From: Squalus acanthias
Taxonomy: Eukaryota
Length of the DNA stretch: 64,000 bases
Assembly: GCA_030390025.1 (NCBI GenBank)
Contig: JASTWF010000034.1
Span: 186,001 to 250,000, forward strand
Reading direction: 5' to 3'
Part shown: piece after piece, positions 43,710 through 62,560 of the stretch
Position numbering within the stretch: the first letter of the stretch is position 1
Layout of the letters: every line of letters starts with the position of its first letter
Notes under the pieces: generated by a model
Told to the model about the DNA's origin: nothing
Databases searched by the model: none
What the model saw: the letters and a program-made list of their open reading frames with translations, nothing else
Position numbers and translations under genes: made by a program

Positions 43710-46410
43710 ATAAGGCTCCCTCTACTCTGTCTCATCAAACACTCCCAGGGCAGGTACAGCATGGGTTAGATACAGAGTAAAGCTCCCTCTATACTATCCC
43801 ATCAAACACACCCAGGTCAGGAACAGCACAGGTAAGATGCAGAGTAAAGCTGCCTATATACTGTCCCATAAAACACTCCAAGGGCAGGTACAGCACGGGA
43901 TAGATATTGAACAAAGCTCCCTCTACACTGTCCCATCAATCACTCCCCGGGCAGGTACAGCACAAGTTAGATACGGAGTAAAGATCCCTCTACCCTGTCC
44001 CATCAAACACTCCCAAGGCGTATATAGCACGGGTTAGATACAGACTAAAGCACCATTTACGCCATCCTATCGAATACTGCCAAGGCAGGTAGTGCGCAGG
44101 TTAGGTACAGAGCAATGCTCCCTCTACACTGTCCCATCAAAAACAGCCAGGGTTAAGGGCACAGGTAAGATGAAGAGTAAATCTGCCTCTACGTTGTCCC
44201 ATAAAAGTCTCCCAGGGCAGGTACAGCAAAGGTTAGGTACCAAGTTAAACACCCTCTACACTGCCCCATCTAAAACTGCCAGGGCTTGTATATCACAGTT
44301 TGCTACAGGGTAAAGCCCCCTCTACAAAGAGACAACAAACACTCCCAGGGCAGGTACAACACAGGTTAGATACAGAGTTAAGCTCCCTCTACCCAGTCCC
44401 ATCAAACACTCCCTAGGCAGGTACAGCATGGGATAGATACCGAGTAAACCTCCCTATACACTGTCCCATAAAACTATCCCAGGGCAGGTACAGCACAGGT
44501 TAGATACAGAGTAATTCGGACTCTACACTATCCCATGAAACACTCCCAGGATAGGTATAGAACAGGTCAGATACAGAGTAAGGCTCCCTCTACACTGTCC
44601 CATCAAACACTGCCAGGGCATGTATATCACAGTTTGGCAACAAAGTAAAACTCCCTCTACAAAGACCCATCCTACACTACCAGGGCAGGTACAGCGCAGG
44701 TTAGATACAGTGTAAAGTTCCCTCGACACTGTCCCATCAACTACACCCAGGGCAGGTACAGCATGGGATAGATATCGAGTAAAGCTCCCTCTACACTGTC
44801 CCATCAAACTATCCGAGAGCAGGTACAGCACGGGTGAAATACAGAATAAAGCTCTTTCTACAAAGATCCATCAAACACTCCCAGGGCAGGTACAACACAG
44901 GTTTGGATACAGAGTAAAACTCGCTCGACACTTTCCCATCAAACACTCCGAGGGCAGGTACAGCACGGGTTAGATATTGAATAAAGCTCCCGCTACATTG
45001 TCCCATCAAGCACTCCCCGGGCAGGTACAGCACAGTTTAGATACAGCGTAAAGATCACTCTACACCATCCCATCAAACACTTCCAGGGCAGTAACAGCAA
45101 GTATTAGATGCCTTATAAAGCACCCTCTACACTGTCCCATCAAAAACAGCCAGGGCAGGAACAGCACAGGTAAGATGAGAGTAAATCTTCCTCTACACTG
45201 TCCCATAAAACACTCCCAGGGCAGGTACAGCATGGGTTAGGTACCAAGTAAAACTTCCTTTACACTGTCCCATTTAAAAATGCCAGGCATGTATATCACA
45301 GTTTGGTGACAAGTAAAGCCCCCTCTACAAAGACGCATCAAACACTCCCAGGGCAGGTACAGCACAGGGAAGATACAGAGTAAAGCTCCCTCTACACTGT
45401 CCCATCAAACACCCCCTAGGCAGGTACAGCATGGGATAGATATCGAGAAAGCTCCCTCTACACTGTCCCATCAAACACTCCCAGGGCAGGTAGAGCACGG
45501 TTTAGGTACAGAGTAAAGCTCCCTCTACACTCTCCCATCAAACACTTACAGGGCATGTATATCACAGATTGGCAACAGAGTAAAGGTCCTCTACACTGTC
45601 CCATCAAACACTCCCAGGGCAGGTACAGCAAGATTTAGATACAGAGTAAAGCTCCCTCTACACTGTCCCACCAAACTATTCCAAGGCAGGTACAGCAGGG
45701 GTGAGATACAGAGTAAAGCTCCCTCTACACTGCCCCATCAAACACTCCCAGGTCAGGTACAGCACAAATTAGGTACAAAGTAAAACTCACTCTACACTCT
45801 CCCATCCAAAACTGCAAGGGCATGTATATCACAGTTTGGCGGCAGAGTAAAGATAACTCGTCAAAGACCAGATCAAACACTCCCAGGGCAGGTACAGCAC
45901 AGGTTAGATACAGAGCAAGGCTCCCTCTACAATGTCCTATCAAACACACCCAGGGCAGGTACAGCACGAGTTAGATATCGAGTAAAGCTCGCTCTACACT
46001 TTCCCATCAAACACTTCCAGGGCAGTTACAGCACGGGTTAGATACAGAGTAAAGCTTCCTCTACACTGTCCCATCAAACACTCCCAAGGCAGGTACAGCA
46101 CGGGTTAGATACAGAGTAAAGCTCCCTCTACACTGTCCCGTCAAACATTCCCAGGGCAGGTACAGCACAGGTTAGATACAGAGTAAAGCTCCCTCTACAC
46201 TGTCCCATCAAACACTCCCAGGGCAGGCACAGCACCGGTTAGATACAGAGTAAAGATCCCTCTGCACTGTCCCATCAAACACTCCCAGGGCAGGTACAGC
46301 ACGGGTTAGATACAGAGTAAAGCTCCCTCTACACTGGCCCATCAAACACTCCCAGGGCAGGTACAGCACCGGTTAGATACAGAGTAAAGATCCCTCCACC
46401 CTATTCCATC
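43710..46410 (+). repeat. 67-bp satellite, about 40 copies
   Basis: Unit CAGGGCAGGTACAGCACGGGTTAGATACAGAGTAAAGCTCCCTCTACACTGTCCCATCAAACACTCC. Confidence 0.95.
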
Positions 46411-46411
46411 A

Positions 46412-49400
46412 AATTAGAGAGATGAATGCGTGGCTCAAAGATGGGCATGGGAAAAATGGGTTTCGATTCCTGGGGCACTGGCACCAGTACTGGGGAAAGT
46501 GGGATCTGGACCGTTGGGACGGTCTTCACCTGAATCATGCTGGGACCTGTATTCTGGCGAGTTGTATAACTAGGGCGGTAAAGAGGGCTTTAAACTAAAT
46601 AGTGGGGTAAGGGATCGAATTTGGGAAGATGTGGTAAATCAAAGAGTAGAGACAAGGCAAGAGAGAAAGGTATTAATGTGGGAAATGATAAACAGACCGT
46701 GACAGGAAGGGATAGTGAGTACAAATCTAAGAGTAAATCAACAGATAAGGCTAGAGGTTACATAAATAAAGTACCAAACTAAAGGCTCTGTATCTGAAGG
46801 CTCGTAGCATTCGAAACAAAACAGATGAACTGATAGCGCAAATAGAAATAAATAAGTATGATCTGATAGCCATCACAGAGACATGGCAACAGGTTGACAC
46901 AGATTGCGACCTGAATATTGAAGGGTACATGACATTTAGGATGGAGAGGAATCTAGAAAAAGGTGGCGGGGTGGCTCTGTTAATTAATGATGGTATGTGC
47001 GCTATAGATTGGGATGACTTAAATTCAGGAAACTAGGATGCAGAAGCGGTTTGGGTGGAGATGAGAAATGGTATAGGCAAGAAGTCACTTGTGGAAGTGG
47101 TGTACAGGCGCCCTAACAGTAGCCACACGGTAGGATGGAGTATAAAGGAAGAAATAGTGGGAGCTTGTCAGTAAGGTACGGCAATAATCATGGAGGTTTT
47201 TAATCGAGATATAGACTTGAAAAATCAGATGGGCAGAGGTAGCCTAGATGAGGAGTTCATAGAATGTTTTCGGGATAGTTTCTTCGAACAGCACGTTCTG
47301 GAGCAAACCAGAGAACAGGCTATACTAGACCTGGTATTGTACAACAAGATAAGATTAATTAATGACCACATAGTGAAGGCACCCCTAGGTAGCAGCGATC
47401 ATAATATGATTGAATTTTACATTCAGTTTGAGGGAGAGAAGAGTGGGTCCAGACTAGGTTTTTAAACTTAAATAAGGGCAATTATGAGGGCATGAAAGCA
47501 GAGTGAACCGGCAAATTAGGTTAAGGGATAGGTCAATAGAGTTGCTGTGGCAGGCATTTAATGGGATTTTTCAGAATACACAGAATAGATACATTCCAAC
47601 GAGAAAGAAAAATTGCAAGGGGAGGAACCACTATCCGTGATTAAGTAAAAAAGTTAAAGATAGTATCAAACTTAAAGAAGAAGCAGATAATTGCGCAAAG
47701 GGGGGTGGCAGGTCAGAAGATTCGAGAGAATATAAAAAGCAGCAAAGAATGACTAAAAAATTAATAAGGAGAGAAAGAGTACGAGAGAAAGCTAGCTAGA
47801 AATATAAAAACAGATATTAAGAGTTTCTATAGATATTTAAAAAAGGAAAGAGTTAACAAAGTGGGTGTTGGTCCTACAGAAAGTGAGTCTGGGGAATTAA
47901 TAATGAAAAAAGGAGATGGCAGTAGAATTGAACAGGTATTTTGCATCGATCTTCACTATAGAGGATACAAGTAACATCCCAGAACTAGCTGTAAATCAGG
48001 AAATGGAAGGAAGGGAGGAACTCAAGAAAATTACAATCACCAGGGAAGTAGTGCTGAGGAAATTGTTGTAGCTGCGGGCTGACAAGTCCCCGGGTCCTGA
48101 TGGACTTCATCCTAGGGTCTTAAAAGAAGTGGCTAGTCAGTTAGTTGATGCGTTGGTTTTAATTTTCCAAAATTCCCTAGATTCGGGGAAGGTTCCATTA
48201 GATTGGAAAATAGCGATTGTAACTCCTTTATTCAAAAAGGGCGGGAGACAGAAAGCAGGAAACTACAGGCCTGTTAGATTAACACCTGTCTTAGGGAAGA
48301 TGTTAGAAACTATTATTAAAGACGTTATAGCAGGGCACTTGGAAAAGTTCAAGTTAATCAGGCAGAGTCAACATGGTTGTGTCAAAGGGAAATCATGTTT
48401 AACCAATTTATTGGAGTTCTTTGAGGAAGTAACATGTGCTGTGGATAAAGGGGAACCGGTGGATGTACTGTACTTAGATTTCCAGAAGGCATTTGATATG
48501 GTGCCACATCAAAGGTTATTGCGGAAAATAAAGGCCCATGGTGATGGGTTAACATTAGCATGGATAGAAGATTGGTCAGCTAACAGGAAACAGAAAGTAG
48601 GCATAAATGGGTCATTTTCTGGTTGGTAAGATGTAGCGGGTAGTGTGCCACAGGGATAATGCTGGGGCCTCAACTTTTTACAATTTATATAAATGACTTG
48701 GATGAAGGGAACGAAGGTATGGTTGCTAAATTTGCTGATGACACAAAGATAGTTAGGAAAGTAAATTGTGAAGAGGACATAAGGAGGTTACAAAGAGATA
48801 CAGAGAGGTTAAGTGAGTGGGCAAAGATCTGGCAAATGGAGTATAATGTGGGAAAATGTGAAATTGTGCATTTTGGCAGGAAGAATAAAAAAGAAGCATA
48901 TTATCTAAATGGAGAAAGATTGCGGAGCATTGAGATGCAGAGGGGTCTGTGTGTCCTAGTGCATGAATAGCAAAAGGTTAGTATGCAGGTACAGCAAATA
49001 ATTAGGACAGCTAATAGCATGTTATCTTTTATTGCGAGGAGAATTGAATACAACAGTAGGGAGTTTATGCTTCAGTTGTACAGGGCATTGGTGAGACCAC
49101 ATCTGGAGTACTGTGTACAGTATTGGTCTCCTTATTTAAGGAAGGATGTAAATTCGTTGGAAGCAGTTCAGAGACGGTTTACTAGACCAATTACTGGAAT
49201 GGGCGGGTTGTCTTATGAGGAAAGGTTGGACAGGCTAGGCTTGTATCCGCTGGAGTTTAGAAGAGTAAGAGGTGACTTGATTGAAACATATAAGATCCTG
49301 AGGGGTCTGGACAGGTTGGATGTGGAGAGGATGTTTCCTCTTGTGCGAGAATCTACAACTAGGGCTCACTGTTTAAGAGTAAGGGGACGCCCATTTTAGA

Positions 49401-49646
49401 CAGAAATGAGGGATATTTTTTTTCTCACAGAGGGTTGTGAGTCTTTGGAAGTCTCTTTCTCAGAGGACGGTGGAAGCAGAGTCTTTGAATATTTTAAGGC
49501 GGATGTAGATAGATTCTTGATAAACAAGGGTGTGAAAGGTTATCGGGGGTAGGTGGGAATGTGCAGTAATCAGATCTTTTTGAATGGCGGAGCAGGCTCG
49601 AGGGGCCGAGGGGGCGACTCCTGCTCCTATTTCCTATGTTCGTATG
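46412..49646 (+). mobile_element. CR1: ORF1 end, degenerate full ORF2 and tail
   Basis: DGLHL, ITETW, SDHN, KSPGPD, FADDTK; many stops. Confidence 0.9.
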
Positions 49647-49654
49647 TACCTGCC

Positions 49655-50500
49655 CCGGGAGTGGGAGGGGCTTGGCCGCTTTGTGACATTGTTCCAGGCT
49701 GCTGTTTGATTGGCTTCTGGCTCCTTTGTGATGTCACCCTGGAGACAGGTTTCCGCCCCTGGTTATGTCAGTGTGGGAGGAGCTGGAGTGACAGCTGACA
49801 CTGGGAGGAGTTCAGTCGCAATAAACAGGGCAAAGGGCCGAAAGGAACAATTTAATATTAAAGTAAATAATTCAAACACACTCATTAATTACAAATATAA
49901 TGAAACTAGATACAATACCAGTCGCAAAAACCGTCCCACTGTATTCCAAGTACAGATGCTGGAATTAATATGAATCATTTTTCTATTGACAGTCTCTGGG
50001 AGTGAGCAATATCTCAGGAAGGTGGAGAGAGAGAATCGAATCATCGCCGCACTCACTGGGACTGGAGAAATGTCGCTGGCTTCACAGAGCAGTTCTGGTG
50101 GGAACCAGATCCCCATGTCAGAGACGGGATAAAACGGGAAGCTTGAGCAATGATTGGAAAGGTGAGGAACTTTACTGAGAATTCCACCAGTCCAGGATTT
50201 TGCCGAGGTGAGAATCTAACCAGACATTGGGAGCTGTTCAACATCTGCCGTCAGGCTCGGCCTTTGATGCGGCAAGTTGAGCGGATCTTAACTCGGAGAT
50301 AAATCTTTCCCGTACCTCACCTGCGAGAGTTTGACACTTACATGCAGTGGGATCGTTAGTCTATATTCACACCATGCTGTACCTGAGCTGGTTGTGCATC
50401 TTTGCATAGTGTCAAGGGAGCTGTATTGAACACATGCTGCATCTGAGTTGGTTGTGTTGATGAACCAAATTTAAGAGAGATTTACTCTGTACCTATCGCG
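49655..50500 (+). other. Second, more degenerate copy of the 41290-42060 unit
   Basis: Colinear similarity including trailing satellite remnants; first donor mutated to GGAGGAGT. Confidence 0.7.
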
Positions 50501-50738
50501 TGCAGCATTCTGAGGGGGGAGGGTGAACAGCCAGAGGTCGTGGTCCATATCGGTACAAACGACAAAGTTAGGAAGAGGGATGAGGTCCTGCAGACAGAGT
50601 TTAGGGAACTAGGGAAGAGGTTAAAAAGCAGGAACTCAGGTAGTCATTTCCAGATTACTACCAGTGTCACTTGCTAGTGAGTACAGAAATAGGAAGACAG
50701 AGCAGATGAATGCGTGGCTGGAGATTTGGTGTAGGAGG

Positions 50739-53700
50739 TGTGGTAACAAAATACAGCTTCCTGTGACTCGAACTTTATTACATCACTTCCTGTGATTAGT
50801 CCAGGATAAATACTGGGCTGATCAGTGGGATCCTGGAGAGGCATAGAGTAAGACCTCTTTTGTATGTAGCACCTTTTTAGTTGATTAAAGCTTACTTTAA
50901 GTTCACCACGCGTAAGGCTCATTCTTACGACAATTTAATCAACTTTGAAAAACTTCGCACTCAAACTTTTTGGACGAACTCGGAACTAAGGATCCAGGGA
51001 ATCACCCATCATGGAAAACATCCTTAAACCATCGCGTCTTGACTTGGACCCAAACACCCGAGCAGCCGGTAAGGTGTGGAAACACTGGTATCGCACGTTT
51101 GACAATTTTCTCGAATATTGCAAGGCTGATGATGACTCAAAATTGCGGATACTCATCAACTGCGTCACCCCGAATGTATTTCAGTATGTCGAGGAATGGG
51201 GCAGTTACGAGGAGGCAATTCGGACGCTTAAAAGACTATATACTAAGACACCGAATGAGGTCTATGCCAGATATCTACTAGCTACAGCCCAACAAGGGCC
51301 GGAGGAATCCATTGATAAATTCCTCCAAGAGCTTCGCAGACTTAGTATGGACTGTAACTTTCAGGCGGCCTCAGCTGAGCTGTACCGTGAAGAAATGATC
51401 CGTGATGCTTTCATCTGCGGGCTTGCCTCCCCATTTATACGCCAGCGTCTACTGGAAAGTAAGACACTTGAGCTTCAGAGAGCTTATGACATGGCTTGCT
51501 CTCTAGATCTGGCAAAAAGAAATGCAGACCTTTATACAGTGCCCAGACCTCGGTCTGCTGCCTTAACTACAGTCAGGCAATTTAAGAGGCCACAGGTGAA
51601 CTCTATTAGGGAGGACTTTATCCCTGACGATCAATCTGATGACTTCACTGATGAAGAGGATGATGACCCCACTGTGGCAGCCTCTTGGCAATCTAAGAAA
51701 TGCTTCTTTTGTGGTGATGAGTTTCACCCTCGGAAATTCTGCCCTGCTCGCAATGCGTTTTGCAGTCATTGCAACAAAAAGGGTCATTTTGCAAAGGTTT
51801 GCCTATCAAGAGCCTCTACGAGGGCTTATCAAGCTAAGTCCTACCGAACTGCCCCGGTAAGGGCCTATCAAGATGTTCCGGCTAAAATCTATCGTGCTTC
51901 CTCTCGGGTTTTCTCTCGAAGAAACACACCTAGAGTTTCAGCCACTCTTTGTGCAACGACACCAATTACAGCTGCTTGTCCTCAGAACCTATTCCATGCA
52001 GCTACAAAAGCATCAATTAATGGACATACTTTAGATGCCTTAATTGACTCAGGTAGCACTGATAGTTTCATTAGGGAACAGATTGTTGCAGAGTTAAAGC
52101 TACATGTTTTCCCATCGGACCAGGCAATTGCGATGGCTCAGTCATCACTTAATACCAGAATTTCTGGCTTTTGTATGGTTGAAATAACACTTAATGGTCA
52201 CAGGTATCCCTCCACCCGGCTTTCGGTGCTCAAGGACTTATGTAGTGATCTTATCTTAGGGCTAGATTTTCAAAAGCAGCATAAGAAGCTCACCATTGAG
52301 TTCGGCGGATCCAAACCTGAACTCACTATTTCTAATATACGACCTCGATTACCATTCTGTGCATTGTCAGCAGCTTCACTGGATGAACCCTCACTGTTTA
52401 CCAGTATCCCTCCTCGATGCAAACCGATTATAACAAAGTCACGACGTTTCAGTCAGGAAGACCAGTCTTTTATTGCGGCTGAGATTTCTCGGCTTTTAGG
52501 AGAGGATATCATCGAGCCTTGTTCGTCGCCATGGCGCGCCCAGGTCGTTATTGTTAAGAACCCTCTACAACCTCACAAGAAACGGCTGTGCATTGACTAT
52601 TCACAGACCATCAATCAATATACGGACTTGGACGCATACCCATTGCCGCGCATCGATGATATGGTTAATAAACTGGCTGAGTACACGGTGTTCTCAACAT
52701 ATGATCTGAAAAGTGCCTATCATCAGGTACCCTTGAAGGTCTCAGACAAGCAGTATACGGCCTTTGAAGCCAATGGACGGCTGTATCAATTTCGTCGCCT
52801 CCCCTTTGGGGTCACTAATGGAGTGGCTGTCTTCCAGCGAGCAATGGATGACCTGGTCAAACAGGAAGACTTAAAGGATACGTTTCCTTATCTGGACAAT
52901 ATTACTGTCGCAGGTCGCAATCAGCGGGAACATGACGCCAATCTCCAACGATTTTGGGATGCACTCCAGCACCGTAATTTGACATTAAATGCGGCTAAAT
53001 CCATTGAGTCACAACCAACCATCAACATCCTTGGCTATTGTGTGGGCAATGGCATCATTAAACCTGACCCTGAAAGGCTTCGCCCACTCCAAGAACTCCC
53101 GCCACCTAAGAATCCGGCCTCCTTGCGCCGGGCCCTCGGCCTGTTTGCATACTATGCTAAATGGATTCCTAACTTCTCGGACCGAATCCAACCTCTACTG
53201 AAGGCCAGCACATTCCCACTAGACACAGCGGCTGTTGCAGCCTTTAACCTCCTGAAAAAACAGTTGGAGAAAGCGGCTCTTCACTCCATCGATGAGAGTC
53301 TTCCTTTTGTTGTGGAGTGTGATGCCTCGGAGGTGGCGATCTCGGCCACTCTGAATCAGGAAGGTCGTCCGGTGGCATTTTTGTCCAGGACTTTTCAAGG
53401 GGCTGAGCTACATTATCCTCCAGTCGAGAAAGAAGCTACAGCCATCATAGAGGCAGTACGGAAGTGGACTCATCTCCTAGCTCGCCAGCACTTTACCTTA
53501 ATCACGGACCAGCGATCGGTCGCCTTCATGCTCGATAATCGAAAACGGACCAAAATTAAAAATAATAAAATCCAGCTTTGGCGGCTGGAATTGGCCTCTT
53601 TTGGTTACACCATCCACTATCGACCTGGCAAGGAGAATGTGGCTCCGGATACCCTCACACGAGCATTCTGCTCCGCCATGGCACCCTCTACGCTCGTAGA

Positions 53701-55218
53701 CATCCATGATGGGTTGTGTCATCCGGGCGTTACTCGCATGCTACACTTCGTGCGGTCCCGAAATCTCCCATTCTCTACCGGGGATGTAAAGAAGATGTGC
53801 TCGGACTGCAGAGTCTGTGCGGAATTGAAACCTCAGTTTTTCCGCCCCTCGGGTGGTATACTCATACATGCGACCCAGCCAATGCAACGGCTTAGCATCG
53901 ATTTTAAGGGGCCGTTGCCCTCTTCAACTCGCAACACTTATCTATTGACCATGGTCGATGAGTATTCCCGTTTTCCATTTGCCTTTCCCTGCCCCAATAT
54001 GCTGACGACCACGGTTATCAGCTGCCTTGAGCAGGTATTTGCTTTCTGTGGCATGGCATCCTATGTTCATTCGGATCGGGGCCCTTCTTTTATGTCAGGA
54101 GAACTCAAGGCCTATCTCTCGGAACGGGGTATTGCTGCCAGCAGAACGACGCCTTATCATCCGGTCGGGAATGGGCAAGTCGAGCGTTTTAACGCTATCA
54201 TCTGGAATGCGGTACGTCTGGCTTTGAGATCTCGGGGCCTACCCAACCAGCAATGGGAAGCAGTACTTCCAGACGCATTACACTCCACATGGTCCCTCCT
54301 TTCGACCGCCACAAATACGACGCCTCATGAACGGTTCTTCCGATTTCAGCGTCGCTCATCCTATGGGATATCTCTCCCGTCGTGGCTGACTGCACCGGGA
54401 CCAGTGCTACTCCGAAGATATGTTCGGGCGTCTAAGAATGACCCCCTGGTAGATGAGGTTGAGCTCACTGACGTCAACCCTACCTACGCCTATATTCGGT
54501 ATCCTGACGGTCGGGAATCTACCGTGTCATTGCGGGATCTGGCTCCCTGCCCGCCGAAACATAGAGGGACACCAGGGGATGATATTGTACCAGGCACATC
54601 TCTGGGCTCGCCAGGTGCCTCTCATCACGATCTGGATCTGACGCCGGCTGGTACCTCACTCCAGCGTGCCGACCTGGGGCAGACTGACTATGAGCCCGTC
54701 GGGGCTCGCACGCGCAGCCACGATCCACCCCGTACCATACGCTCGGAAACGGATCTGCCACAGCCCTGCCCGACACCCGTTCGGGCATCAGTACACAGTC
54801 AGGATCGTCCTGACCCCTCACAGAGCGGGCTGGATCACTCGGACTCTGGTCCACGGCCCGCGGCGGGTAAACGGGCTAGGGGCCCTCTCCCGCTACGAGA
54901 ACCCAAACGGGTGCGGCTCTCCCTCGTCCAGCGGCTACGAAATGGAGGGAGAATGTGGTAACACAATACAGCTTCCTGTGACTCGAACTTCATCCCGGCC
55001 TCCTAATCTTTTGGGGGGGGAGAATGTGGTAACACAATACAGCTTCCTGTGACTCGAACTTTATTACATCACTTCCTGTGATTAGTCCAGGATAAATACT
55101 GGGCTGATCAGTGGGATCCTGGAGAGGCATAGAGTAAGACCTCTTTTGTATGTAGCACCTTTTTAGTTGATTAAAGCTTACTTTAAGTTCACCACGCGTA
55201 AGGCTCATTCTTACGACA
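50739..55218 (+). mobile_element. Full-length Gypsy (Metaviridae) LTR retrotransposon
   Basis: 194-bp TG..CA LTRs at 50739-50932 and 55025-55218 (one mismatch seen); 5-bp TSD GGAGG at 50734-50738 and 55219-55223; PPT GGGGGGGGAGAA at 55013-55024. Confidence 0.98.
51011..54961 (+). CDS. Single-ORF Gag-Pol polyprotein (Gag with two CCHC knuckles, PR, RT, RNase H, IN), 1316 aa
   Basis: CFFCGDEFHPRKFC and CSHCNKKGHFAKVC; LIDSGS; DLKSAYHQ, LPFG, YLDN; CDAS..EKE..TD; H..H..C..C, IDFKG, SDRG, GQVERFN. Confidence 0.96.
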   Translation: MENILKPSRLDLDPNTRAAGKVWKHWYRTFDNFLEYCKADDDSKLRILINCVTPNVFQYVEEWGSYEEAIRTLKRLYTKTPNEVYARYLLATAQQGPEESIDKFLQELRRLSMDCNFQAASAELYREEMIRDAFICGLASPFIRQRLLESKTLELQRAYDMACSLDLAKRNADLYTVPRPRSAALTTVRQFKRPQVNSIREDFIPDDQSDDFTDEEDDDPTVAASWQSKKCFFCGDEFHPRKFCPARNAFCSHCNKKGHFAKVCLSRASTRAYQAKSYRTAPVRAYQDVPAKIYRASSRVFSRRNTPRVSATLCATTPITAACPQNLFHAATKASINGHTLDALIDSGSTDSFIREQIVAELKLHVFPSDQAIAMAQSSLNTRISGFCMVEITLNGHRYPSTRLSVLKDLCSDLILGLDFQKQHKKLTIEFGGSKPELTISNIRPRLPFCALSAASLDEPSLFTSIPPRCKPIITKSRRFSQEDQSFIAAEISRLLGEDIIEPCSSPWRAQVVIVKNPLQPHKKRLCIDYSQTINQYTDLDAYPLPRIDDMVNKLAEYTVFSTYDLKSAYHQVPLKVSDKQYTAFEANGRLYQFRRLPFGVTNGVAVFQRAMDDLVKQEDLKDTFPYLDNITVAGRNQREHDANLQRFWDALQHRNLTLNAAKSIESQPTINILGYCVGNGIIKPDPERLRPLQELPPPKNPASLRRALGLFAYYAKWIPNFSDRIQPLLKASTFPLDTAAVAAFNLLKKQLEKAALHSIDESLPFVVECDASEVAISATLNQEGRPVAFLSRTFQGAELHYPPVEKEATAIIEAVRKWTHLLARQHFTLITDQRSVAFMLDNRKRTKIKNNKIQLWRLELASFGYTIHYRPGKENVAPDTLTRAFCSAMAPSTLVDIHDGLCHPGVTRMLHFVRSRNLPFSTGDVKKMCSDCRVCAELKPQFFRPSGGILIHATQPMQRLSIDFKGPLPSSTRNTYLLTMVDEYSRFPFAFPCPNMLTTTVISCLEQVFAFCGMASYVHSDRGPSFMSGELKAYLSERGIAASRTTPYHPVGNGQVERFNAIIWNAVRLALRSRGLPNQQWEAVLPDALHSTWSLLSTATNTTPHERFFRFQRRSSYGISLPSWLTAPGPVLLRRYVRASKNDPLVDEVELTDVNPTYAYIRYPDGRESTVSLRDLAPCPPKHRGTPGDDIVPGTSLGSPGASHHDLDLTPAGTSLQRADLGQTDYEPVGARTRSHDPPRTIRSETDLPQPCPTPVRASVHSQDRPDPSQSGLDHSDSGPRPAAGKRARGPLPLREPKRVRLSLVQRLRNGGRMW

Positions 55219-57791
55219 GGAGGTACCACTTTAGATTCCTGAGGAATTGGAACCGTTTCTGGGGGTGGTGGCACCTCTACAATCCAGACGGGTTGCACCT
55301 CAATGGGAACGGGACCAATATCCTCACAGGAGGGTTTGCTAGTGCTGTTGGGGAGGGTTTAAACCAGCTTAGCAGGGGGATGGGAACCTAGCAATAGATT
55401 CAGTAGGGAGGGAAGTAAAACTGGAATTGGAAAACAAAAACGTAGAATGTAAATTGGAAGGACAGAGGAATCAAGGCCAAGATAGCAGTGAACAAGGAAG
55501 TTTGCCTGTACTAAATGGTGTATACTTCAATGCAAGGAGTACAGCGAACAAGGCAGAGGAGCTAAGGGCACAGGTAGATACTTAGGACTATGAAATTATA
55601 ACTATTACAGAGACATGGCTAAAGAGAGGCAGGTATGGCAGCTCAACATTCCTGGTTACAAGATTTTCAGACGGGATAGAGATGGAAGTAAAAAAGGACG
55701 GGGGTTCACGGTATTGATTAAAGAATCTATTACAACTATGAGGAGAGGTGATATGTTGGAGGGATCATCAAACGAGGCCACATGGGTCGAATTGAAAAAC
55801 AAAAAAGGGGCGATCACACTGCTGGGAGTGTACTACAGACCCCCAAACAGTGAGAGGGAGATTGAAGAACAAATATGTAAACGCATTTCTGAGAAGTGCA
55901 AAAACTATAGGGCAGTAATAGGAGGGGATTTCAACTACCCCATTATTAACTGGGATAAACTTAGTGTGAAGGGTACAGAGGGTGCGGAATTTGTAAAATG
56001 CATCAAGGAGAACTCTTTTAGCCAGTATGTAGCAAGCCCCACAAGGGAGGGGACGGTTCTGGACTCAGTTTTAGGCAATGAAGCTGGACAGGTGGAAGGC
56101 GTATCAGTGGGGGAGCATTTTGGTGCTAGTGACCATAATTCTGTTAGATTTAAGGTAGTTATGGAAAAGGACAAGGGTAGACCAGAAATAACAATTCTAA
56201 ATTGGGGAAAAGCAAATTTTGCAAAGCTCAGACCGAATTTAGCCATAGTGGACTGGAAACAGCTACTTGAAGGTAAATCAGTTTCAGAGCTGTGGGAGGC
56301 ATTCAAGGAGGAGTTCCGGAGGATTCCGACCAAATATGTGCCCTAAAAGAAAAAAGGTGGGCCTAACAAATCTAGAGCCCCCTGGATGTCTCGGGACATG
56401 CAGGTTTGTATAAAGAAAAAAAGGGAGGCGTATGACAGATACCGAGGGCTAAATCCTCCAGAATCTTAAGAGGAGTACAGAAAGTGCAGGGGAGCAATTA
56501 AAAAGGGTATTAGGAAAGCAAAGAGAGCATGAAAAATTCTGGGCAAGTAAAATCAAGGAAAACCCAAAGATGTTTTATAAATATATTAAGAGTAAGAGGA
56601 TAACAAAAGAAAGGGTATGTCCTACTTGATATCATGAGGGTAATCTGTGTGCGGAGGCGGGAGACGTCGGTAGGGTTCTTAATGAATACTTTGCGTCTAA
56701 TTTCACAAGGGAGAGGGGCAACGCAGACATTGCCATCAGGGAGGACGAGTGTGAAATATTAGATGAAATAAACATAGCGAGAGAGGAAGCATTAAGGGGT
56801 TTAGCAGCTTTAAAAGTGGATAAATCCTCAGGCCCGGATGAAATGTATCCCAGGCTGTTAAGCGAAACAACAGCGGAAATAGCAGAGGCCCTGACCATCA
56901 TTTTTCAATCCTCTCTGATTTCAAGTGTGGTGCCGGAGGACTAGAGGACTGCTAATGTGATATCCTTGTTTAAAAAGGGGGAAAAGGATAGACCGAGAAA
57001 TTACAGGCCAGTCAGCCTAACCTAGGTGGTGGGAAAATTATTGGAAAGAATTCTGAAGGATAGAATAAATCTTCATTTAGAAAGACACTGATTAATCAAG
57101 GATTGTCAGCTCGGATTTGATAGGGGAAGGTCGTGTCTGACAAACTTCATTGACATTTTTGAGGAGGTACTAAGGAGGGTGGATGAGGGTAGTGCGTTTG
57201 ATGTAGTGTATAACGACTTTAGCAAGGCTTTTGATAAGGTTACACATAGCAGACTGTTCACGAAGTTAAAAGCCCATGGGATCCAGGGCAAAGTGACAAG
57301 TAAGATTCAAAACTGGCACGGAGGCAGGAAGCAGAGGGTAATGGTTGATGGGTGCTTTTGTGACTGGAAGGCTGTTTCCAGTGGGGTTCCGCAGTGCTCA
57401 GTACTGGGTCCCTTGCTTTTTGTGGTATATATCAATGATCTAGACTTGATTATAGGGGGTATGATTAAGAAGTTTGCAGATGATACAAAAATCGGCTGTG
57501 TGGTTGATGCTGAAGAAGGAAGCTGTAGACTGCAGGAAGATATCAATAAATTGGTCAGGTGGGCAGAACAGTGGCAAATGGAATTCAATCCGGAGAAGTG
57601 TGAGGTAATGCATTTGTGGAGGGCTAACAAGGAAAGGGAATACACATTGAATGGTAGGACACTGAGTAGTGTAGAGGAACAAAGGGACCTTGGAGTACAT
57701 GTCCACAGTTACCTGAAGGTAGCAGGCCAGGTAGATAAGGTGGTTAAGAAGGCATATGGAATGCTTGCCTTTATTAGCCATGGCACAGAAT

Positions 57792-58405
57792 CATCTACTT
57801 CCTCTTCTTAGGCTGTCCCTCGGAACCGAGGATGACTTGCTTCCACATTAAAAATGAGTTCGCAGGTGACTGATGAGTCCAATGCGGGACCTACAGTCTC
57901 TGTTACAGGTGGGGCAGACGGTGGTTGAAGGGGCGGGTGGCTGGGGTGCTTGGGTTGACGTGCAATCCTTGCACTGCCTGCAGTTGGCTTCTGCTGGCTC
58001 CCGTCAAAGAGACGTGAGGTGTTCGGCGCCTTCCCGGATGCTTCTCCTCCACTTTGTGCTGTCTTGGGGCAGGGATTCCCAGATGTCAGTGGGGCTGTTA
58101 CACTTTTTCAAGGAGGCTTTGAAGGTGTCCTTGAAGAATTTCCTCTGCCCACCTGGGGCTCTCTTGCCGTGTCGGAGCTCCGAGTAGAGCGCTTGTTTTG
58201 GGAGTCTTGTATCGGGCATGCGGACGATGTGACCCGTCCATCGGAGCTGATGGAGTGTGGTCAGAGCTTCGATTCTGGGGATGTTGGCCTGAGCGAGAAC
58301 ACTAACGTTGGTGCGCCTATCCTGCCAATGGATTTGCAGGATCTTGCGGAGTCAGCGTTGGTGGTACCTCTCCAGTGCATTGAGCTGCCTGCTGTACATG
58401 TACGT
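57792..58405 (-). mobile_element. RTE-clade LINE 3' fragment
   Basis: RMPDTRLPKQALYSELRHGKRAPGGQRK..KDT.KASLK; microsatellite-like tail. Confidence 0.85.
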
Positions 58406-58456
58406 AAATGAGAAGTCGCACAACACCAGGTTATAGTCCAACAGATTTATTTAATT

Positions 58457-58495
58457 TTACAAGCTTTCGGAGCAGTTTGCTCCTTCGTCAGGTAA
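58457..58495 (-). ncRNA. Minimal hammerhead ribozyme of a second family, in a probable Penelope terminal fragment (about 58408-58678)
   Basis: Minus strand: TTAC-CTGACGA-A-GGAGCA aac TGCTCC-GAAA-GC-TT-GTAA, followed by AATAAA. Confidence 0.75.
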
Positions 58496-58679
58496 GTTAG
58501 CAGTGAGAGAATCTCCCAGAATTCACAATTTAAACACAGACAAAATATATTCAAATCTTTCCCTACATCAAAGAGCACAGCCAAGACAATGAGATGTGTC
58601 CCAGGGGGTCCAACGTGTCAAACCACCTGCTGGCTGCATATCCTGTCAATCTGTGTAGGTTCTTGTGTTAGTCTTTTAC

Positions 58680-59295
58680 GTGGCATAGAATACAAGAGCA
58701 GGGGATTTATGCTTCAACTGTATAAAACACTAGTTAGGCCTCAGCTAGAGTACTGCGTGCAATTCCGGTCACCACATTACAGGGAAGATGTGATTGCTCT
58801 CGAGAGGGTACAGAGCAGATTTACATGGATGTTGCCGGGAGTAGAGAATCGCAGCTATGAGGAAAGAGTGGATAGGCTGGGTTTGTTATCCTTGGTGCAG
58901 AGGAGGCTGAGGAGCGATCTTATTGAGGTATATAAAGTTATGAGGTGCCTAAATAAAGTGGATAGAATTGAACAATTTCCCTTAGCAGAGGGGTCAAGAA
59001 ACATTTGGCACAGATTTAAAGTAATTGGTGGAAGGTTTAGAGGGGATTTGAGGGAACATTTCTTCACCCAGAGGGTTGTGGGGGGTCTGGAACTCACTGC
59101 CTGAAACGGTGGTAGAGGCAGAAACCCTAACCACATTTAAAACGTACTTGGATGTGCACTTGGGATGCTGTAATCTGCAGAGCTAGGGACCAAGAGCTGG
59201 GAAGTGGGATTAGGCTGGATAGCTCTCTGTTGGCCGGTGCGGACACGGTGGGCCGAAATGGCCGCTTTCCGTGCTGTAACTTTCAATGGTTCTAT
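58680..59295 (+). mobile_element. CR1 3' part (continuation of the element interrupted at 57790)
   Basis: GIEYKSR..LVRPQLEYC..FFTQRVV plus tail. Confidence 0.88.
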
Positions 59296-59349: not shown

Positions 59350-60392
59350 CAAAAACAGAAAATGCTGGAAATACTCAGCAGGTCAGGCAGCATCTGTGGG
59401 GAGAGAAACAGAGTTAACATTTCAGGTCGATGACCCTTCGTCAGAACTGGAAAAAGCTGGAGATGGAACAAGTTTTTAAGCAAGTGCAGGGGCAGGGAAA
59501 GGGGGGATGGGAGGAAAGAACAAAAGTGAAGGTCGGTGAAAGGATGGAAGGCAGGAGAGATAAAGAGACATTAAAGGAGATTAAGTGATGGTACAAGGAA
59601 AAATAGATGGTATTGGGACACGTTAAGAAACAAAAGATGGCTCTAGATAAAGTGTAAATGGCACTGGCAGAATGAAAGAAAGCTGCCATGTGGGAGAGAG
59701 AAAAAAAATAAATGGGAAAAAAGGATAGGGGCAGAGGTTATGGTCTGAAATTGTTGAACTCTATTTTGAGTCCAGGAAGCTGTAAAGAGCCTAATCGAAA
59801 GATGAGGTGCTGTTCCTCGAGCTTACGTTGAACTTCATTGGAACAGTGTAAGAGGCCGAGGACGGTGAGATCTGAGTGGGAGTGGAGCGGAGAATTAAAG
59901 TGACAGGCGACCGGAAGCTCGGGGTCAAACTTACGGACTGAACGGCGGTGTTCCGCAAAGCAATCACCCAATCTGCGTTTGCTCTCCCAAGTGTAAAGGA
60001 GACCGCATCGTGAGCAACGAATACAGTATACTCAATTGCAAGAAGTACAAGTAAATCGCTGTTTCACCTGGAAGGAGTATTTGGGGCCCTGGACAGTGGG
60101 AAGTGGAGGTCAAAGGGCAGGTGTTGTATCTCCTGCGCTTGCACGGGTGCTGGGCAAAGGGAAAGGGGTGTTGGGGGTGATAGAGGAGTGGGCCAGGGTG
60201 ACGCGGATGCAGCGATCCCTTCGGAATGCTGAAAGTGGAGGTGAGGGAAAGATTTGTTTGCTGGTGGGATTACAATGGATGTGGCGGAAATTGCGGTGGA
60301 TGATCCGTTGAATCTGAAGGCTGGTGGCGTGAAAGCTGAGGACAAGGGGAACTCTATCGTGGTTCCTGGAGGGAGGGGTGGGGTGAGAGCAG
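59350..60392 (-). mobile_element. Penelope-like element 3' part (GIY-YIG) with hammerhead at 59412-59448
   Basis: Homologous to 27240-28260; GDCFAEH..EFNNFRP*; core CTGACGA..GAAA retained, stem III C>T. Confidence 0.9.
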
Positions 60393-62560
60393 AAGTTAAT
60401 TGTTAAATTGGGTATGATAACCAATACACAGGGTAAAACAGCTTAAGTAATTGTTAAATTGGGTATAATACACAAGGTAAAAGTGTTATACAGTTAATTG
60501 TTAAATTGGGTACGATAACCAATACAAAGGATAAAACTGTGACATTTAATTGTTAAATTGGGACTGATAACCAACACAGTTAAAACTGACAGGTAATTGT
60601 TAAATTGGGTATGATAACCAAACCACAGGGTAAAACTGTTGCAGGTATTTGTTAAATTGGGTATGATAACCAATACACAGGATAAAACTGTCACAGTTAA
60701 TTGTTAAATTGGGTATTATAACAATACACAGGGTAAAACTGTCACAGTTAATTGTTAAATTGGGTATGATAACAATACACAGGATAAAACTGTCACATTT
60801 AATTGTTAAATTGGGTATGATAACAATACACAGGATAAAACTGTCACAGTTAATTGTTAAATTGGGTATGATAACAATACACAGGATAAAACTGTCACAG
60901 TTAATTGTTAAGTTGGGTACGATAAACAATGCACAGGATAAAACTGTCAGTGAATTGTTAAATTGGGTATGATAACCAATGCACAGGATAAAACTGTCAA
61001 AAGTAATTTTTAAATTGGGTATGATAAGTAATACATAGGCTAAAACGGTTTCCTTTAATTGTTAAATTGGGTATGATAACAAATACACAGGGTAAATCTT
61101 TTTAAACAACCATAACACAAGGTGAAACTGTTACATTTAATTGTTAAATTGGGTATGATAGACAATACTGTAAGATTAGGATCACAGGTCACACACAGGT
61201 TACACAAAGGGTCTTCGGAGTTGTGAGGCTTTTTATTAAAGAGCTACAGTTTTAAAGCATAATCAGATATTACATGTGCTTTAAGCTAAGTATAATAGAC
61301 ATACAAGCACTGACTGTAGAGAGCGATCTACGACTCCGAAGCGGAATGCCACGACCGGACGAACGGTGAGGCAGTACGGTGGTCTCGGATTGGGTGGAAT
61401 CCTGCAGTCTGCGGCAGCGGTCTATTCCATTGGGTCATCATTCGAGCTGTTGGAGGTGTTAGGCTGTAAGCCACCTCAGAAGTTAAACTTGACCAATGTT
61501 TTCGGCCGTAGCCACCTCCGCGAAGCCTTCGCCCCTAACTGCCTGATTTCCTCTTTCGCTCGTCTATATTCATCGTTATTTCGGTGGGCTGGTGATTAAC
61601 TGGTGCCAATCATTTTTTGCCCATCCTATTGTCCAATTTCAAAGGAGAGACTTCCTATGACACCCCCCTCCCAGCCTCATGAGGTCAATTTCCACCTTAT
61701 CTCTGTTCTAAAGATCTTGTTGCCTTCTTGTAGACAGCTTGTTTACCCAACAGCTTCTTGCGGTATCCCGTATCATGCCTTGTTATGGCCACTCGAAGGC
61801 CTGATTCTGTTCTGACCTTGTAATTCAACTCTCTGTACAGCTGTTTTTCTGACGTGAATGGAATGTTTCTGTGTCATTAACTTAGGCAAACTGCTGATCT
61901 AGGGAACCCGTAACAGAATATTATTTCTTTCAATCCACGATTTGTAAAAATAGACAGGGTAAAACTGTTGCAGTTAATTGTTAAATTGCGTATGATAACC
62001 AATACACAGGGTTAAACTGTTACAGTTAATTGCTTAATTGGATATGGTAACCAACACGCAGGGTAAATCTATAACAGTTAATTGTTAACTTAGGTATGAT
62101 AATCAATACACAGGGTAAAACTGTTAGTTAATTGCTTAATTGGGCGCGATAAGGGGAATAAAGTTAAGTAATTGTTGAATTGAATATAAACAGCACACAT
62201 GCTAATTTAATTAGTTTATTGTTTAATTAGTATTTTAACGAGTGCGCAGTGTATAAAGCTACAGTTGTTAAATTGGAAAATTGGAAAAAAAACTAAAGTT
62301 AGTTCATTTATAAATTGACTATAATTATTAAACTGTCTTATAAAATTAGTTAATTTTTAAATTGGTGGCGATAACCTGTGCATGGAGTACAAAACTACAG
62401 TTAATTGTTTAATTGTAAATGATAATGAATTCACAAGGGAATAAATTTACAAATAATTGTCAAATCGGGCTTGATAATGCACAGGATAAAACTGTTGAAT
62501 TTAATCGTTATATTGGGCTTGATAACCAATACACCGGTGTGTAAAGTTTACTGTTAATTC
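60393..62560. repeat. 51-52-bp AT-rich satellite (begins near 59296), interrupted by Penelope and a solo LTR
   Basis: Unit GTTAATTGTTAAATTGGGTATGATAAC(C)AATACACAGGATAAAACTGTCACA. Confidence 0.92.
61169..61932 (-). mobile_element. Putative solo LTR (ERV-like)
   Basis: Interrupts the satellite; minus strand runs TGAAAG..CTTACA; AATAAA about 65 nt from the end; flanks ATAC/ATCC. Confidence 0.6.

Follow-up and report, generated by a model that had tools for sequence, protein, structure and literature searches.

A chromodomain-less clade of animal Ty3/Gypsy retrotransposons with a predicted self-primer in its own LTR

The window (the whole stretch of 64 kb from Squalus acanthias that was analysed) contains an LTR retrotransposon in which the place of the primer-binding site is taken by an exact complement of an upstream segment of its own LTR. 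Related elements carry the same arrangement at the same fixed position behind the LTR end, with different sequences that have changed on both sides together, and a site of the tRNA type is found in none of their junctions. The best reading of this complementarity, and in our opinion a highly probable one, is that the RNA of the element itself serves as the primer of minus-strand DNA synthesis. The core proposal of the preliminary description of this DNA was that a Gypsy element without chromodomain has a tRNA-independent site complementary to its own LTR. This proposal is strengthened by covariation in about 15 lineages, by short leaders and by the absence of chromodomains from all 24 family members. 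The mechanism itself would be of a known type. What we judge to be new, within the literature covered, is its probable occurrence as a clade-wide, covariation-supported trait of compact animal Gypsy elements.

Positions 50739–55218 form a complete LTR retrotransposon of 4480 bp (Table 1). Paired LTRs, target-site duplication, polypurine tract and domain order identify it as a Ty3/Gypsy (Metaviridae) element. Pfam matches in the gag-pol frame follow the Gypsy order gag(CCHC)-PR-RT-RNase H-IN. The same order is found in Ty3 from Saccharomyces cerevisiae, which is also the nearest solved structure (best match in the RT/RNase H region, E = 5e-59). Ty3 is primed by a tRNA, in contrast to the mode predicted for the element described here. 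The lack of a chromodomain, the twin CCHC knuckles and the YLDN motif, by which the element had initially been characterized, recur throughout its family: none of 24 members has a match to the chromodomain profile PF00385 (E ≤ 0.01), both knuckles are invariant in all 24 sequences, and the RT motif is YLDN in 21 of them. Consequently, the element is not a chromovirus by domain content and is without a defining feature of the Tf1/sushi group. Fragments of non-LTR retrotransposons lie in its neighbourhood, and no tRNA gene was found within the 64-kb window.

Table 1. Coordinates of the retrotransposon and of its predicted priming elements in the window.
Feature	Position	Strand	Basis
Target-site duplication GGAGG, left copy	50734–50738	+	Same 5 bases after the 3' LTR
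5' LTR, 194 nt, TG...CA ends	50739–50932	+	Direct repeat, 99% identical to 55025–55218
Predicted self-primer AGTTGATTAAA within the LTR, last six bases ATTAAA	50879–50889	+	Exact complement of 50934–50944; equivalents covary with the site in relatives
Small hairpin directly 3' of the primer, GCTTA/CTT/TAAGT	50890–50902	+	Minimum-energy fold
U5 hairpin CGTAAG(G)...(U)CTTACG, ending 4 nt short of the primer site	50911–50929	+	Sequence and minimum-energy fold
Single spacer A between the terminal CA of the LTR and the primer site	50933	+	'CAA' before the site in 18/18 representatives
Predicted primer-binding site TTTAATCAACT, complement of the own LTR	50934–50944	+	Sequence, relatives, shuffles
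Gag-pol in one frame of 1316 codons, with two CCHC knuckles, protease, RT (YLDN), RNase H and integrase	51011–54961	+	
Polypurine tract GGGGGGGGAGAA, adjoining the 3' LTR	55013–55024	+	Read from sequence
3' LTR, 194 nt; 11-mer again at 55165–55175, without a complementary site behind it	55025–55218	+	
Target-site duplication GGAGG, right copy	55219–55223	+	Read from sequence

Direct reading of the 5' junction gives an LTR that ends in ...CTTACGACA at 50932, followed by A at 50933, and no TGG-type site behind the LTR. The next 11 bases, TTTAATCAACT (50934–50944), are the exact reverse complement of AGTTGATTAAA (50879–50889). The duplex is exactly 11 bp long, since the flanking T50878/T50945 and G50890/A50933 are unable to pair. 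These readings agree with the preliminary description, and so do the smaller motifs that it had placed in this region: ATTAAA (50884–50889), a putative polyadenylation signal, TTAGT (50877–50881), a putative initiator, and between the paired segments the two arms of a stem, CGTAAG at 50911–50916 and CTTACG at 50924–50929. In the minimum-energy structure predicted for the RNA 50879–50960 (-15.4 kcal/mol), nucleotides 1–11 lie on the site and both hairpins are formed; the z-score is -2.7, and 2 of 200 shuffles fold equally well. The duplex of the window is nevertheless short and AT-rich, and a complement of at least 11 nt anchored 0–3 nt from the LTR end arises in 3 of 5000 dinucleotide shuffles of the window LTR. 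From the window alone it could thus be argued that a functionless inverted repeat has arisen by chance in AT-rich sequence. This explanation is to be judged by the relatives of the element.

A search with the polyprotein yielded 7993 candidates, 1508 of them with E ≤ 0.001. The best 120 relatives share 57–89% identity over RT to IN, and the named ones come from shrimp, copepod, tunicate, cnidarians, mussel (mollusc), catshark and nematode. DNA of relatives was obtained from metagenome contigs (70 loci; of 644 pattern matches 568 were confirmed, and the best 80 retained) and from contigs binned into bacterial MAGs (another 11 loci), giving 81 loci in total; the viral contig collection contained no relative of the element. 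To find LTR pairs, the sequences on either side of each gag-pol match were compared, and the bases behind the LTR were then tested against the LTR. In 22 partial loci the LTR search gave no usable pair. The first-pass 'LTRs' of five loci (L031, L041, L056, L101, L102) proved to be overlaps of contig ends within coding sequence and were rejected, as was the microsatellite taken for an LTR in L108; L031, L041, L101 and L108 were recovered afterwards by motif scan or upstream search. The junction set comprises 27 elements, namely the window element and 26 relatives with 38–57% protein identity.

In 23 of these 27 junctions at least 11 (11–19) contiguous bases are complementary to an LTR segment located 23–66 nt upstream, which ends in (A/T)TAAA or TAAAA. 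Ten complementary bases are present in L058 and L103, and seven in L066 and L106, which are the oldest copies (LTR identity 94% and 74%). The position of the complement is fixed: it begins after 'CA' plus one A at the LTR end, and with TTT[A/T], in 18 of 18 representatives. TGG stands at the site in no lineage (27 junctions, 18 representatives). The arrangement was also retrieved by a blind scan of the 81 loci for sites in which 'CAA' precedes TTT[A/T]N7 and an exact complement of 11 nt lies 20–130 nt upstream. Here 25 loci were positive, six of them outside the set examined earlier, and one additional match was a spurious poly-T; the negative loci appear for the most part to be contigs without the 5' end of the element. 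Loss of complementarity in intact relatives, which the preliminary description had named as evidence against its proposal, was not seen among the eight elements with open frames of at least 1150 codons. All of them keep the pairing (the window element, L032, L033, L034, L035, L038, L040 and L101); L033 has a 19-bp duplex with one mismatch, at position 2.

The two arms of the duplex have changed together. In the 16 representatives compared, every one of the 176 cells at positions 1–11 (numbered from the LTR end) holds a Watson-Crick pair. The pairs at positions 1–3 are invariably A-T, and positions 4–11 have 2–4 pair types each, which requires at least 13 two-sided changes. The pairs were counted by a script at anchored positions. 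The representatives were chosen via their longest inverted repeat, so that pairing of the cells within a detected arm follows from the selection; independent evidence is provided by the fixed anchor, by the matrix across lineages, and by the controls with slid partners and shuffled sequences. Sliding the partner by 1–3 bases left only 35–91 of the 176 cells paired. The lineages have 15 distinct 11-mers, each with its own exact complement, and cognate complements measure 11–19 nt compared with 4–8 nt for the LTRs of other lineages. The exception in this matrix is a group of four lineages with the common core GTTGATTAAA. Across lineages, the observed complement length was reached in 0–3 of 5000 shuffles. 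The compensatory change between LTR and site to which the preliminary description had attached importance is hence present in about 15 lineages with different duplex sequences. An arrangement that recurs at a fixed position in so many lineages, and that neither shuffles nor non-cognate LTRs reproduce, makes a chance origin extremely improbable.

Beyond the core, pairing is still enriched: positions 12–16 are paired in 64 of 80 cells, as against 46 of 96 at positions 17–22. Consequently, the RNA of most lineages probably starts a few bases upstream of the 11-mer, in departure from the usual picture of Tf1. Pairing of exactly 11 nt from the cap, as had been suggested for the window element, does not hold as a general rule, because most relatives pair over 12–19 nt; what stands is an invariant core of 11 bp. 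The duplex of Tf1 has the same length of 11 bp. An A-G at positions 11–10 is retained in 14 of the 16 representatives. This conservation, together with the exact 11-bp duplex of the window, would fit a transcript start at 50879.

The predicted folds of all 16 representatives close on the primer-site duplex, and their minimum-energy structures consist of this central duplex and local hairpins. A stem directly after the AAA of the LTR arm is present in 10 of 16 folds (the window and 9 of the 15 others), and its first pair is G-C or A-U. Seven of these stems are local hairpins; in L040, L034 and L086 the stem is a longer-range GCC...GGC pairing. A stem beside the site is clear only in the family of the window, and weak short stems by the LTR end appear in the folds of L032, L039, L038 and L035. 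The CGTAAG/CTTACG hairpin, which had been noted between the two segments, does exist in the window family but is specific to it; recurrence across lineages is seen for the hairpin directly after AAA. A 'pretzel' of three duplexes, which Tf1 is reported to need, is not evident in the minimum-energy folds of the 16 representatives.

In the retroviral mechanism the right edge of the 5' LTR marks the start of minus-strand synthesis. The complement begins at this edge and is therefore, by position, the primer site. In a number of lineages it also leaves little other sequence in which a primer could bind. In 14 of 27 junctions -1 to 5 nt separate the site from the gag ATG, and where the post-LTR leader of such short-leader lineages was measured it is 15–19 nt long, nearly all of which is the site. 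Leaders of this length have no room for another primer site.

As tRNA priming is the rule for LTR elements, one could assume that the site binds a host RNA, be it a tRNA, a fragment of one or some other small RNA, and that its likeness to the LTR is secondary. The 3' ends of tRNAs are conserved, and a tRNA primer would impose a conserved TGG... on the site; however, no site begins with TGG. Instead, the site tracks the LTR of each lineage through all 15 distinct 11-mers. The longest complement between the site zone and host tRNAs was 5 nt, in a set of 31 tRNA calls (7 distinct sequences, tRNA-Lys and tRNA-Cys only) that is too narrow to count. Further support for a host primer comes from the Mag lineage, including the C-clade elements SURL and Steamer. 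In the published descriptions these are, like the element described here, compact animal elements of 4–5 kb with a single gag-pol frame; the C-clade has LTRs of about 150–220 nt with TGT...ACA ends, a likeness by description only. Like the clade described here, the Mag lineage is widespread across phyla and suspected of horizontal transfer. In the same accounts, however, Mag-lineage elements are tRNA-primed, with tRNA-Leu or tRNA-Ser sites in mosquitoes, and Steamer has the tRNA-Leu site TGGTGTCAGAAG, whereas the present clade has no such sites. The Steamer motif TGGTGTCAGAAG is absent from the loci of all 81 relatives, and it is not enriched in the host genome (40 matches compared with 68 for the reversed control). 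We therefore consider a host RNA as the primer very improbable. Cigr-1 or other animal clades are possible homes of the clade described here.

The pairing might alternatively be nothing but a regulatory RNA switch, which hides the polyadenylation hexamer of the 5' LTR and often the gag ATG, leaves the 3' copy free as the pairing partner is located beyond the LTR, and coexists with some other primer. Occlusion of a 5' polyadenylation signal by RNA structure is known in retroviruses. In keeping with this, the LTR arm ends in a canonical AATAAA or ATTAAA in 12 of 18 representatives, and the site adjoins or overlaps the ATG in many lineages. Yet the pairing is equally perfect in the 6 of 18 representatives with a non-canonical hexamer (GTTAAA, TTTAAA, TTAAAA, GTAAAA). 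Occlusion also needs no exact anchor one base after CA, which all 18 nevertheless have, and the leaders of 15–19 nt provide no space for the other primer site that a mere switch would demand. A switch without priming is consequently rather unlikely, and masking of the polyadenylation signal or of the start codon could well coexist with self-priming as a second role.

For self-priming, we propose the following course. The LTR-derived 5' part of the transcript would fold back onto the sequence whose first base is the second one behind the 5' LTR. The primer segment of the window would be 50879–50889, ending in UAAA, and one or two small hairpins would close the duplex with its invariant 11-bp core. 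Cleavage behind AAA, presumably by the RNase H of the element as in Tf1, would create a 3'-OH, which the reverse transcriptase could extend through the spacer A and U5. The end of the LTR would in this way be set at ...CA with one additional base that the integrase could trim. The retroviral primer itself is the template from which the plus-strand copy of the primer site is made. If plus-strand strong-stop DNA of the present element copies its primer, the site would be rewritten from the LTR in each cycle, and such rewriting would explain perfect matches in young copies and decay in old ones. The same pairing would cover the ATTAAA/AATAAA of the 5' LTR and, in many relatives, adjoin the gag ATG, so that the duplex may in addition mask 5' polyadenylation and translation.

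Self-priming is an established mechanism of Tf1, and it has been inferred for the relatives of Tf1 (Tf2, like Tf1 from Schizosaccharomyces pombe, Tj1 and the Tf1/sushi group). As in the element described here, members of the Tf1 group have no tRNA site, and the sequence behind the LTR complements an upstream LTR segment of their own RNA. In contrast to Tf1/sushi, the present clade has no chromodomain, a YLDN motif, a hexamer resembling a polyadenylation signal at the end of the primer arm, a site that often adjoins the ATG, and animal hosts of many phyla. For plants, lineage-wide self-priming has been predicted from sequence for Tcn1 (a chromovirus) and TAR (Ty1/copia) (Neumann et al. 2019); these differ from the present clade in being chromoviral or of a different superfamily and in having plant hosts. 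Besides these, the literature covered contains a list of fungal elements and, with Skipper from Dictyostelium, an unexplained case. Self-priming has been treated there as a hallmark of the Tf1/sushi chromoviruses, supplemented by predictions for the two plant lineages. Within this literature, which does not include key older papers, self-priming did not turn up for any animal Gypsy clade that has no chromodomain. The literature search for 'YLDN' found no paper, and Llorens 2009 makes no mention of primer sites.

The clade with the predicted self-priming sites has crustaceans, tunicates, cnidarians, molluscs, a nematode and a shark as hosts. According to two reports, hosts target tRNA-type primer sites by 3' tRNA fragments and by KRAB zinc-finger proteins (PMC7472051, PMC8931336). 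An element with its own, fast-changing site would escape both, and a self-primed element would, after horizontal transfer, not depend on a matching tRNA of its host. Pipelines for annotation in which a tRNA primer site is mandatory will give wrong scores to this abundant clade. Tentatively, these aspects may be joined. A YLDN animal clade without chromodomain could have gained or kept self-priming apart from Tf1/sushi, and a single duplex of 11–19 bp could be the primer and at once cover the 5' polyadenylation signal and the gag start, so that the RNA would switch between the roles of mRNA and template. Independence of tRNAs, with escape from silencing by tRNA fragments or directed at the primer-binding site, could then aid the crossing of phyla and high copy numbers in new genomes. 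We regard this combination as conceivable, though on balance somewhat doubtful.

In the host genome itself, the identical 11-mer and site were found in 29 of 30 other copies; the thirtieth is without an exact U5 anchor. For the LTR-leader region of this family, the genome of 3.7 Gb yields no fewer than 900 first-look candidates, and all 40 scored copies of the region are 99–100% identical. The family is therefore both young and abundant.

The gag start codon of many relatives of the element lies close to the predicted self-priming site, overlapping it or following 0–5 nt downstream (for example at the loci L040, L034, L086, L100, L096 and L045). In these relatives the predicted pairing of the primer site with the element's own LTR would bury the start codon. 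Such burial could toggle the RNA between being translated and being reverse-transcribed.

In the active-site box of the reverse transcriptase the last residue is Asn in 21 of the 24 family members compared and Asp in the other 3. An Asn in place of the second catalytic Asp is unusual for a clade that is evidently active, and a literature search for YLDN found no paper.

Coordinates of features in the window.
Feature	Window position	Polyprotein residues	Remarks
RT active-site box	52889–52900	627–630	YLDN in place of YxDD
Pro/Ser/Arg-rich tail of polyprotein	54550–54958	about 1180–1316	
Direct repeat, 41 nt	54950–54990 and 55021–55061		copies 71 nt apart
Endonuclease-like frame	55594–56346		among non-LTR remnants
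Satellite array, 67-bp period	44000–46508		20–27 copies
Second satellite, 51–52-bp period	60392–62533		two blocks

The Pro/Ser/Arg-rich tail, in which no Pfam domain was found, makes the polyprotein of the window family 80–130 residues longer than those of intact relatives (1187–1238 aa). The 41-nt repeat joins the final bases of the polypurine tract to the first 37 nt of U3. This unit is duplicated inside the gag-pol frame, at its 3' end, and the TAA stop codon of this frame (54959–54961) falls inside the duplicated U3 start.

Among the matches listed, polyproteins from crustaceans, tunicates, cnidarians, molluscs, a shark and a nematode are 57–77% identical from RT to IN. This identity is too high for vertical descent and suggests horizontal transfer; published work describes horizontal transfer for Steamer-like elements. 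Contigs carrying this animal retrotransposon (loci L101–L110) are filed under public bacterial MAGs, labeled Hyphomicrobiales, Ekhidna, Leptonemataceae, Metamycoplasmataceae and Rubritalea, among others. These contigs are evidently mis-binned host DNA.

On both sides of the element (48072–50738 and 55219–59104) lies the patchwork into which it has inserted. It is made up of non-LTR retrotransposon remnants, which include RT motifs such as FADDTKI. One frame of these remnants, containing HIGTND, stops about 60 nt short of the insertion point. Copies of the 67-bp satellite are 60–86% identical to the reference copy, and some adjacent copies of the 51–52-bp satellite share 96–97% identity.
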